Shown here one piece after another: positions 37,272 through 39,283 of a stretch of DNA of 40,027 nt (position 1 is the stretch's first letter; the number at the start of each line of letters is the position of its first letter). The translations under genes were made by a program, and so were the position numbers. Source of the DNA: a virus; UHGV virus genome UHGV-0312859, one strand, 5' to 3'. Below the pieces are notes generated by a model. That model had not been told where the DNA came from and did not search any database. It worked only from the letters and a program-made list of their open reading frames with translations.

Positions 37272-37478
37272 ATGGATATTCCAGGATTTACCTTACTATT
37301 GCAGGACTTTTGCGCATACTGTCCAGATTTTGAACCGGAAATAGAGAAGATTGAGTATAGCTGCGTTATGAGAGCACCCAACTGCCAGAATAATATCCGT
37401 TGCATAAACAGAAAGCGCTGTGCAAGGATTGCAGCTAATATTCAGAAACGGGTGAATACTGATGACAAGGAAGAATGA
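37272..37478 (+). CDS. small Cys-rich protein
   Basis: RBS AGGAGA. Six Cys in 68 aa. Confidence 0.35.
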   Translation: MDIPGFTLLLQDFCAYCPDFEPEIEKIEYSCVMRAPNCQNNIRCINRKRCARIAANIQKRVNTDDKEE

Positions 37479-39177
37479 ATATGATCTTGCTGCAGCTTTT
37501 CAGAAGATAGAGGATGAGCTGATAGCTTCTATGATCCGGAATATGGACCGGCACCGGGCAGAGGAAACCAAAGAGGGATATAACTGGTCTATGTGGCAGA
37601 CCGAACAGATGAAGGCACTGGAACGATATAAGCAGAAGAACCAGAAGAAATACCAGAAACAGTTTAAGAGTATTAATGCTCAGATTGAACAGTTGATCAG
37701 GCAGGCACGCGCAAAAGGCAACATGAAGCAGGAGATCAAGATCTTACAGACCATCAAAAAAGGCTGGAAAACATCCGGAAGAAACAGATCACCTGCGCAT
37801 GATGCAATGACGGCAGAGTTCTTTAAGCTGAATGACCGAAAGCTGAATGCGTTGATTGAAGCTACTACACACGATATGGAAGTTGCAGAAACAGCAGTGC
37901 TCCGAAAAGCCAATGATGATTACCGGAAAGCAATCTTTGATGCTCAGGTATATGCCAACAGCGGCGCTGGGACCTACGAAAAGGCTGTGGATATGGCTAC
38001 AAAGGATATGCTATCCCGCGGACTTAATTGTATAGAATATGCCAATGGAGCCAGACACACGCTATCGGATTATGCAGACATGGCGATCCGGACGGCCAGC
38101 AAAAGAGCTTACTTGCAGGGAGAAGGCGAAAAACGTCAGGAGTGGGGAGTTACAACGGTCATCATGGCCAAGCGTGGGAATCCGTGTCCTAAGTGCCTTC
38201 CCTTCGTCGGCAAGGTGCTTATTGATGATGTGTGGAGCGGCGGCAGTAAGGACGGCGTGGATCCGGAGACTGGGAAGAAATATCCGCTGATGAGTTATGC
38301 AATCAGCAAAGGGCTTTATCATCCAAGATGCAAGGACAGCCATACTACATATTTCCCTGGTATTTCTACCGCAGATGATACCTGGACTAAAGAAGATCTG
38401 GAAGAGATTGGACTTCAGAACCAGCAGGAAGCCAGGCAACAGTATGCAGAGCGCCAGGTGGAAAAGTATGGGAGACTGGCAGAGTATTCGCTGGATAAGG
38501 AGAATCAAAAAGAATACCAGATAAAAGCGGAAGAGTGGAAAGACCAGGCGTACAGACCAGTTACCAGAGGTGAAGCATCAACAATATTTATTAAACAGCA
38601 GCAGAAAATAAACATTAAGCGAGTTGAAAGCTATTCAGAGATTTACATTTCCAATCAGACGAATATAAAACCTCGTGCGTTACATACATTGAATCAGAGA
38701 ACGGAGCAGGCTTTAAAAGAGTGGGAAGTTTCGCTGGAGAGAAGGCCTAAAATTATTATAGTTTCGCCAGATGAAATGCCTACAGCGTATGGAAAGTATG
38801 ACGCCATACAAAATGTAGTTTTCTATATCCCTCAGATTGCAGACAGTAAAGTGATTAAAGATCAAGGAAATGTTGAATTTCATGAGATGTGGCATATGAA
38901 GCAGGCTGAAAATTTTAGAAAACGATACGGTGAAATTACAAGAGAAAACTATGGTAAGTATATAGAGAATGCTTGTAAAGAAGCAAAGAAGACAATTGAC
39001 AGAGCAGGTATCACGGAGTACAATGTAAGCGACATAAGTAGTTACGCAGATCAAATGTTCTGGATTGATAGGTATGATGAAGTTGAAGCTGAATATATGG
39101 TAAAACATCGAAGAGGGAAGAAACATGGTAATTCGCAAGTATCCGGAGGAGATTCAAAAGGCGATGGAAACTTATAA
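37462..39177 (+). CDS. MuF-like minor head protein (SPP1 gp7 family) with C-terminal extension of about 250 aa carrying an HExxH motif
   Basis: MuF core YADMAIRTASKRAYLQGEGEK...NPCPKCLPFVGKV...HPRCKDS. Downstream extension contains HEMWH at 38881-38895. Confidence 0.7.
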   Translation: MTRKNEYDLAAAFQKIEDELIASMIRNMDRHRAEETKEGYNWSMWQTEQMKALERYKQKNQKKYQKQFKSINAQIEQLIRQARAKGNMKQEIKILQTIKKGWKTSGRNRSPAHDAMTAEFFKLNDRKLNALIEATTHDMEVAETAVLRKANDDYRKAIFDAQVYANSGAGTYEKAVDMATKDMLSRGLNCIEYANGARHTLSDYADMAIRTASKRAYLQGEGEKRQEWGVTTVIMAKRGNPCPKCLPFVGKVLIDDVWSGGSKDGVDPETGKKYPLMSYAISKGLYHPRCKDSHTTYFPGISTADDTWTKEDLEEIGLQNQQEARQQYAERQVEKYGRLAEYSLDKENQKEYQIKAEEWKDQAYRPVTRGEASTIFIKQQQKINIKRVESYSEIYISNQTNIKPRALHTLNQRTEQALKEWEVSLERRPKIIIVSPDEMPTAYGKYDAIQNVVFYIPQIADSKVIKDQGNVEFHEMWHMKQAENFRKRYGEITRENYGKYIENACKEAKKTIDRAGITEYNVSDISSYADQMFWIDRYDEVEAEYMVKHRRGKKHGNSQVSGGDSKGDGNL

Positions 39178-39283
39178 GCCGTATGCAAAATGTATTCATG
39201 ATGGCGAGCTTGAAGGTGTTCCACAGGAAGCTGTAGAAGCGTTTAAAAAAGTGAAGAATTGGGCTTGGGAACAAGGTCAGTAA
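39125..39283 (+). CDS. small ORF (52 aa) overlapping the MuF 3' end; candidate immunity protein
   Basis: RBS GAGGGAAG before ATG 39125. Stop sits immediately before the terminator. Confidence 0.3.
   Translation: MVIRKYPEEIQKAMETYKPYAKCIHDGELEGVPQEAVEAFKKVKNWAWEQGQ

Follow-up and report, generated by a model that had tools for sequence, protein, structure and literature searches.

A MuF-zincin fusion gene and its small downstream gene in virus genome UHGV-0312859: a putative virion-delivered effector with a cognate inhibitor

The virus genome UHGV-0312859 (40,027 nucleotides (nt), analysed at its full length and here called the window) encodes a minor head protein of the MuF type that carries a zincin-like metallopeptidase domain at its C-terminus, and a 52-amino-acid (aa) protein is encoded directly downstream of it. 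The best reading of this locus is that the fusion protein is probably a virion-delivered zincin effector or toxin, and the small protein its cognate inhibitor. Such a pair would be a known kind of phage weapon, in which a MuF polymorphic toxin, or an effector delivered by the virion, is paired with a cognate small protein; what is new here is that neither the zincin family nor the partner family has been annotated, and that a predicted promoter, conserved at the level of codons, is nested in the enzyme gene.

The zincin-like domain of the MuF protein

The fusion gene and its parts are as follows.

37462..39177, plus strand: MuF-zincin fusion gene, an open reading frame (ORF) encoding 571 aa
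37486..38547, plus strand: MuF2 domain (PF06152, Phage_min_cap2; head or ejection protein), residues 9-362 including a C-terminal helical linker; Pfam E 1.2e-36, above the gathering score
38551..39120, plus strand: zincin-like metallopeptidase domain, residues 364-553
38881..38895, plus strand: HEMWH catalytic and zinc-binding motif, residues 474-478 (H474, E475, H478), on the predicted active-site helix
39076..39093, plus strand: DEVEAE motif, residues 539-544, on the last helix; invariant or near-invariant columns, within the region that is swapped together with the small gene
39127..39174, plus strand: lineage-specific disordered MuF tail of 16 residues, S556-L571; relatives end in HGN and a stop codon, and the predicted local distance difference test (pLDDT) is <50

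Full-length homologues of the fusion protein share 67-99% identity with it, and phrog_581 ('minor head protein') matches residues 5-517 with an E value of 6e-75. The initial annotation, made from the sequence alone, had described a MuF protein with a C-terminal HEMWH motif, and both are present where it placed them (the ORF at 37462-39177, the motif at 38881-38895). The end of the MuF core had been placed too early, near an HPRCKDS motif at about 38340. The Pfam match and the homology to the MuF protein of Anaerostipes phage AC844P2, which is 67% identical across residues 6-358 and ends at residue 358, put this boundary at residue ~358-362 (~nt 38545), approximately 200 nt further downstream. 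Because the MuF part reaches this far, the added domain comprises ~208 aa (residues 364-571) and not the ~250 residues proposed. A regular-expression search for cysteine motifs in the MuF N-termini was uninformative.

The AlphaFold2 model of the C-terminal domain, built with 48 homologues (pLDDT 89.9, predicted template modelling score (pTM) 0.83), combines a β-sheet at the N-terminus with a bundle of helices, and one long helix (domain residues 107-126) bears HEMWH; an HExxH motif on a helix within such an alpha/beta fold is what defines the zincin/gluzincin superfamily. A poorly conserved HExxH had been named beforehand as a result that would speak against the annotation; in the 48 aligned homologues the H, E and H are invariant. 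Residues Q118, A119 and Y137 (domain numbering) and the C-terminal DEVEAE motif are invariant or nearly so, and among the acidic residues E132 is variable while D176, E177, E179 and E181 are invariant or nearly so. From the alignment, DEVEAE would be a plausible candidate for the third zinc ligand.

Searches of Pfam (E up to 10), NCBIfam and PADLOC with this domain returned only noise, a sequence-profile search of PDB sequences gave no match, and Foldseek against the PDB gave none at E <= 0.001, the best E being 0.03. No profile match was obtained to the MEROPS families M34 (ATLF/PPEP), M30, M48, M78 (ImmA/IrrE) or SprT, either in Pfam to E 10 or in the PDB profile search. The family and structure searches that the initial annotation had proposed for the extension therefore yield a zincin fold by AlphaFold2, yet no curated family or PDB match. 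On the strength of sequence and model the domain is a distinct zincin family outside the curated libraries, and is probably active. It also differs from the compact gluzincins, with no sequence similarity to the Pro-Pro endopeptidases, anthrax lethal factor (M34), lugdulysin (M30) or the minigluzincins selecase and projannalysin, and whereas these are secreted, the zincin in the window would be cytoplasmic or virion-borne.

As the zincin matches no known toxin model, it would belong to the MuF proteins described as having an extension with an unknown domain, and two thirds of MuF C-terminal extensions are without an assigned domain (PMC5576092). A metallopeptidase is not the unusual MuF cargo for which it had been taken, as metallopeptidase domains make up 20% of 191 MuF toxins, a small ORF following in 89% (Jamet et al. 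2017, PMC5576092), and the MuF protein of Streptococcus phage Javan351 carries a different domain with HEFGH. The Ct_MAD domain of Jamet et al. was also considered; its identity with the zincin domain is unlikely, judged by description, because Ct_MAD is Proteobacterial and phage Mu's MuF C-terminal domain was assigned a PBECR fold by Iyer et al. (PMC5512222).

The small gene, its promoter and its terminator

The small gene and its signals lie at the 3' end of the fusion gene.

38996..39024, plus strand: σ70-like promoter (TTGACA, 17 nt, TACAAT) inside the peptidase coding sequence; 11 of 12 consensus positions, ~100 nt 5' of the small ORF
39113..39117, plus strand: Shine-Dalgarno sequence (GAGGG) for the 52-aa ORF, 7 nt 5' of its ATG; in relatives this position reads AGGAGA
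39125..39283, plus strand: 52-aa helix-loop-helix protein, putative inhibitor or immunity partner; adjacent homologue in 120 of 120 loci
39278..39316, plus strand: intrinsic terminator of the small gene; hairpin dG -17.5 kcal/mol, z -4.3, followed by a U-run

The ORF at 39125-39283, with its own ribosome-binding site and a 53-nt overlap with the MuF gene, is exactly as first annotated. Its absence from relatives had been named as a further result that would count against the annotation, but a homologue begins within 120 nt of the stop codon in all 120 of the complete peptidase C-termini with enough flanking sequence. This count was made with hidden Markov models (HMMs) of both families over all fetched loci, many of which are near-identical; identities in the set range from 34 to 100%, and the three MuF types are all represented. 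Where the MuF C-terminus is different, so is the small ORF that follows it. The homologues in relatives are 48-66 aa in length and have the motif [YF]PEEIxKL…EPY…L(R)EDAPxE…, usually ending in WAWEQGQ, and where synonymous sites are unsaturated dN/dS is 0.04-0.29. Judged from these comparisons, the small ORF is a real gene that is tied to the peptidase and not to the head module.

A profile search places 303 clusters in the small-protein family, and the 120 listed are all of 32-79 aa and are without a Pfam domain. The ORF in the window gave only noise in Pfam (E up to 10), NCBIfam, PADLOC and a profile search of PDB sequences, with no match to a helix-turn-helix (HTH) or other DNA-binding family. 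BLASTP finds no match between it and the small ORF of the related locus L003, although the two are homologous by profile methods. The AlphaFold2 model of the small protein (pLDDT 80) is a two-helix hairpin, with helices at 8-26 and 34-50, and the protein is near-neutral to acidic.

The length of the overlap is specific to the lineage of the window; in relatives the two genes overlap by 11 nt, reading CAT GGT AAT TAG. In the window lineage an Arg codon of the small ORF differs synonymously from that of relatives, CGC in place of AGG, and by this change the ancestral TAG stop was lost and 16 disordered residues were gained by the MuF protein. From the sequences compared, the 53-nt overlap is a recent accident.

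The site at 38996-39024 is the best promoter-like site of the region, and most of 40 distinct homologues, those in which the peptidase occurs without MuF among them, keep the pattern TTGAC(N), 17 nt, (T/G)A(T/C)AAT at the corresponding place. Codon constraint was assessed with 36 sequences that are <95% identical. The first codon of the −35 element is xTT in 33 of the 36, compared to 339 of 937 other Ile, Leu and Val codons (p 1.3e-11), the Asp codon of the promoter is GAC rather than GAT at a ratio of 27:1 compared to 15:51 at other conserved Asp columns (p 8e-12), and the Asn codon of the −10 element is AAT rather than AAC at 32:1 compared to 46:22 elsewhere (p 7e-4). Conserved Gly, Ile and Ser codons near the promoter vary freely.

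The strong terminator that had been annotated directly after the small ORF was confirmed by folding and by comparison. None of 200 shuffled sequences folds as well as the hairpin at 39278-39316, and 68 of 89 unique relatives likewise have a hairpin with a T-run after this gene, their stems differing in sequence. A scan for consensus terminators found none at the small gene, as the stem is interrupted. With the embedded promoter and this terminator the small gene would form a self-contained transcription unit, and can be transcribed alone as a predicted RNA of ~285 nt, if the promoter is active as its conservation suggests, besides being transcribed with the late operon.

In nuclease-colicin operons the immunity gene lies directly 3' of the toxin gene, an extra constitutive promoter is situated inside the toxin gene, and the immunity protein is made in excess. 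A prophage would need an arrangement of this kind to express protection. The locus described here resembles this arrangement in the position of the small gene directly 3' of the enzyme gene, and in the promoter within the enzyme coding sequence, but the proteins are unrelated and delivery would be by the phage capsid, as opposed to secretion and receptor-mediated uptake. For MuF polymorphic toxins an embedded conserved promoter with a terminator is not described in PMC5576092 or PMC3482391.

Modular exchange, distribution and the readings weighed

The initial annotation had called for an alignment of MuF homologues, in which the N-terminus proves to be conserved and the C-terminus variable. 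In AC844P2 (L001 in our numbering of related loci, 225-1841) the MuF2 protein is unrelated past residue 358 and has weak matches to JAB/RadC, another metalloprotease fold. That of Javan351 (L002, 2995-4764) is 53% identical across residues 7-359, after which its HEFGH domain follows. Each of these two MuF genes is then followed by its own, different small ORF.

Exchange can also be seen on a finer scale. Across MuF the DNA of loci L033 and L037 is 90-100% identical, and past the small gene it is 100% identical again; from ~120 nt past HEMWH through to the end of the small gene the identity is 50-60%, with the breakpoint just 5' of DEVEAE. Their peptidases differ solely in the last helix and the tail. 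In L089 the MuF C-terminus is 99% identical to that of the window and is followed by the small gene and the terminator; past the terminator lie a 78-aa fragment that starts exactly at MWHMKQAENF and then a different small gene of its own. The promoter is retained in this second copy, which looks like a C-terminal and immunity module that was displaced when recombination took place in the best-conserved stretch. L110 has two small genes in tandem, and L117, L118 and L119 have a small-gene homologue (66 aa, on 172 contigs) but lack any peptidase within 3.5 kb of it. Local swaps and displaced, tandem and orphan small genes such as these are typical hallmarks of a conflict module. The orphan small gene of L117 (3501-3701) adjoins a lipoprotein gene, and its region also encodes PBECR4, HicB-like and NYN proteins, as do those of L118 and L119.

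An exhaustive HMMER search of 1.84 billion representatives (cut-off E <= 0.001) gave 307 clusters for the zincin domain family. The domain is C-terminal in all long proteins of the family, and 55 of the 66 full-length members have a MuF-type N-terminus (29 PF04233, Phage_Mu_F; 17 PF06152; 9 PF25310, VG15, MuF-like). Only two other Pfam families were found among these 66, in one member each and at marginal E (~5e-4), and neither is a trafficking family. The fusions to three different MuF families imply repeated selection for joining a virion-delivered carrier. Named hosts are mostly gut and oral Clostridia and their relatives (Lachnospiraceae, Oscillospiraceae, Faecalibacterium, Agathobaculum, Lachnospira, Lachnoanaerobaculum and Solobacterium), with a few contigs in bins labelled Prevotella, Bacteroides, Alloprevotella or Elusimicrobiaceae. 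The 99%-identical homologue is from a Lachnospiraceae metagenome-assembled genome and one close homologue is recorded on 393 contigs; among the phages and prophages that gut Clostridia harbour (Lachnospiraceae, Oscillospiraceae and relatives) the pair appears to be abundant.

The zincin also occurs without MuF, as solo proteins of ~200 aa with a small gene in non-phage chromosomal neighbourhoods. Their neighbours include glycosyltransferases and YfhO, pyruvate formate lyase with its activase, and a phospholipase D-domain protein, together with ORFs that we take to be LeuRS and HrcA/GrpE. No phage genes were seen within the ~3 kb examined on each side. Since these solo pairs sit among housekeeping-type genes, a role confined to head assembly is ruled out.

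The locus shares several hallmarks with the MuF polymorphic toxins, a concept described along with its small-ORF association in PMC5576092 and by Zhang et al. 2012 (PMC3482391): an N-terminal MuF2 domain whose gene lies a short way 3' of the portal gene of a temperate Firmicutes phage, a C-terminal enzyme extension that is replaced in close relatives, and a small ORF (<150 aa) directly downstream. It departs from them in that this zincin was found in no other polymorphic-toxin family and also occurs as solo chromosomal pairs. Similarly, the HExxH metallopeptidases (MPTases) of phage and plasmid polyvalent proteins are zincins borne by a carrier that the virion delivers, with MuF as a hub domain, and they are predicted to act on entry as effectors or processing enzymes (Iyer et al. 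2017, PMC5512222). Unlike polyvalent proteins, which are giant and multi-domain, the protein in the window has two domains and a dedicated small partner.

If the locus works as proposed, the MuF carrier would place a few copies of the peptidase in the capsid, from where they would enter each infected cell with the DNA, as SPP1 gp7 and 80alpha gp44 are MuF proteins that sit at the portal inside the capsid and exit with the DNA (cited in PMC5512222 and PMC12323379). The delivered peptidase would then cleave cellular proteins as an effector or toxin. The 52-aa protein would be the immunity protein, and would probably bind the peptidase at its distal helices or in its active-site cleft. It would be translated both from the late MuF transcript, in which the two genes overlap or abut, and from its own promoter. 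Having its own promoter and terminator, it could be made independently of the peptidase and in excess over it, including from the prophage, and inhibitor expressed from a prophage would protect producer cells and lysogens.

Several observations weigh against this reading. The peptidase is highly conserved within its family rather than hypervariable, and in some relatives its conservation exceeds that of the MuF part. No zincin domain was found on a non-MuF toxin-trafficking N-terminus among the 66 full-length members. Most known MuF toxin domains are common to other toxin families, and 25% have no homologues elsewhere (PMC5576092). The toxin and immunity pair first proposed is therefore borne out in its swappable C-terminal enzyme domain and its cognate small gene, but not in the hallmark of a shared toxin pool, since the domain is seen on no other toxin-trafficking N-terminus. 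The solo copies lack a delivery domain and must therefore act in their own cell. The small proteins of L033 and L037 are only ~28% identical next to near-identical peptidases, which makes strict one-to-one specificity doubtful, and in the window EGVP stands in place of EDAP, the loop motif that is otherwise best conserved in the small protein. Finally, promoter-like matches in the region are no commoner than in shuffled sequences, and it is conservation only that makes the case for the promoter.

A more novel variant, although improbable, is that the peptidase is no growth-inhibiting toxin but a pilot effector which the phage needs on entry, for example cleaving a host defence or resident-prophage protein, and that the small protein is a decoy or inhibitor which blocks the incoming effector of related phages. 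If true, small protein made in lysogens from its private promoter, or from orphan chromosomal copies, would provide a superinfection-exclusion or anti-phage mechanism directed against an injected phage enzyme, and the solo chromosomal pairs would be domesticated versions.

First among the rival readings comes a resident module of the toxin-antitoxin (TA) or abortive-infection kind, a selfish two-gene cassette acting in the carrier cell for which the MuF fusion is incidental to delivery. The solo pairs amid housekeeping-type genes, the private promoter of the small partner and the existence of orphan partners would all suit it, but most members are in-frame C-terminal fusions to three MuF families, there is no match to PADLOC or a known TA family and no DNA-binding antitoxin domain, and the enzyme-first gene order and displaced C-terminal fragments are nearer to polymorphic toxins than to classic type II TA; we hold it to be rather unlikely.

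There is a low probability that the zincin serves morphogenesis or self-processing, as a protease that trims MuF, scaffold or portal in the producer cell or procapsid, with the small protein as an assembly chaperone or temporary brake. The genome has a scaffold-like gene, none of the ORFs scanned was recognised as a prohead protease, the domain is restricted to MuF proteins among the fusions, and autoprocessing has been proposed for virion-associated MPTases of phage polyvalent proteins (Iyer et al. 2017, PMC5512222). However, the peptidase and small gene also stand alone where the surrounding 3 kb hold no phage genes, an assembly factor would not be expected to have orphaned or duplicated copies or a promoter and terminator of its own, and sibling phages with a 67%-identical MuF core manage without the domain.

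Lower again is the chance of a regulatory pair, in which the small protein, like ImmR cleaved by ImmA, is no inhibitor and is either the peptidase's substrate or a factor that cleavage releases. ImmA/IrrE-type zincins with small partners do work in this way and the phage carries such a pair at 17786-19041, but the zincin domain has no Peptidase_M78 match and the small protein, near-neutral to acidic and modelled as a plain hairpin of two helices, has no HTH or DNA-binding match. It is very improbable that the HExxH is a relic in an inactive structural, capsid-internal or DNA-end-binding module, as was predicted for phage Mu's MuF C-terminal domain (an inactive PBECR nuclease; Iyer et al. 2017, PMC5512222), since the H, E and H are invariant, and Q118, A119 and DEVEAE nearly so, across homologues down to ~20-35% identity.

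The locus defines one previously unassigned MuF extension as a compact zincin family with a dedicated partner of ~50 aa. MuF toxins are widespread in temperate Firmicutes phages, and the literature consulted mentions functional work for alarmone-synthetase-type domains only. The nested promoter is a testable prediction of how lysogens stay protected, and the pair is small, well modelled and tractable. Should the peptidase act on a specific bacterial target, a new point of attack in conflicts between gut phages and their hosts or between phages could come to light.

Genome context and the accessory-gene slot

The window is a temperate siphophage genome of ~40 kb, in which the head genes run over its end into its start. 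It is judged temperate because a serine recombinase and an ImmA/Xre module are present. Other features used here are listed below.

25-669: scaffold-like gene; its counterpart in relatives matches PF06810
14282-15229: endolysin
15367-16839, minus strand: large serine recombinase
17786-19041, minus strand: ImmA/IrrE peptidase and Xre repressor pair
33658-34170: small terminase (PF03592)
34295-35539: large terminase
35536-37122: portal (phrog_533, E 1e-93)
39755-39916: 53-aa Cys-rich ORF (phrog_4188)

The MuF-zincin gene belongs to the head and packaging module, 3' of the terminases and portal, with two small ORFs between the portal and MuF. The first (37022-37267) matches phrog_25639 with an E value of 4e-40, a family of unknown function, and the second (37251-37478, 75 aa, Cys-rich) has no family match in the library scans; in relatives an ORF of 63-66 aa is called at this position.

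Two RNA model matches were noted elsewhere in the window. An Rfam tRNA model matches 33499-33566 (plus strand, 46 bits, gathering score 29) in the gap 5' of the small terminase, where ARAGORN calls no tRNA, and this may be a degenerate tRNA or tRNA-like element. The Rfam SpF66 small RNA model matches 14068-14288 (plus strand, 44.9 bits, gathering score 42), directly 5' of the endolysin gene and slightly overlapping it. Between the serine recombinase and ImmA/Xre genes, a protein with DUF5067 and choline-binding repeats is encoded (17029-17655, minus strand), which may be a lysogenic-conversion or exclusion surface protein.

The ORF at 39348-39731, which follows the small gene, encodes a full-length lipoprotein of the VG64 family (PF25682, E 1.6e-44), for which the PHROGs label, as a label only, is 'RDF'. 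The initial annotation had offered it as an alternative immunity or exclusion candidate. As the immunity partner of the peptidase it was rejected, being present, absent or replaced among phages with a 100% identical MuF C-terminus, and by this comparison it is an unlinked moron.

The slot from the terminator of the small gene to the scaffold gene (39317-40027 of the window, wrapping to 1-24; in related loci L004, 5892-6444; L007, 5887-6830; L045-L049, ~4710-5600) is a hypervariable accessory-gene site. Among phages in which the MuF C-terminus and the small gene are 100% identical to those of the window, its occupant is the lipoprotein again, a protein of 107 aa, the Cys-rich ORF of 53 aa alone, or other genes. 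The slots of more distant relatives contain Tad2-like and DUF6275 proteins, YjcQ and Sequestin, or an ORF of ~295 aa that may be a DNA methyltransferase. Several of these occupants are known or suspected anti-defence genes and, from gene content, the slot is a moron or anti-defence hotspot.

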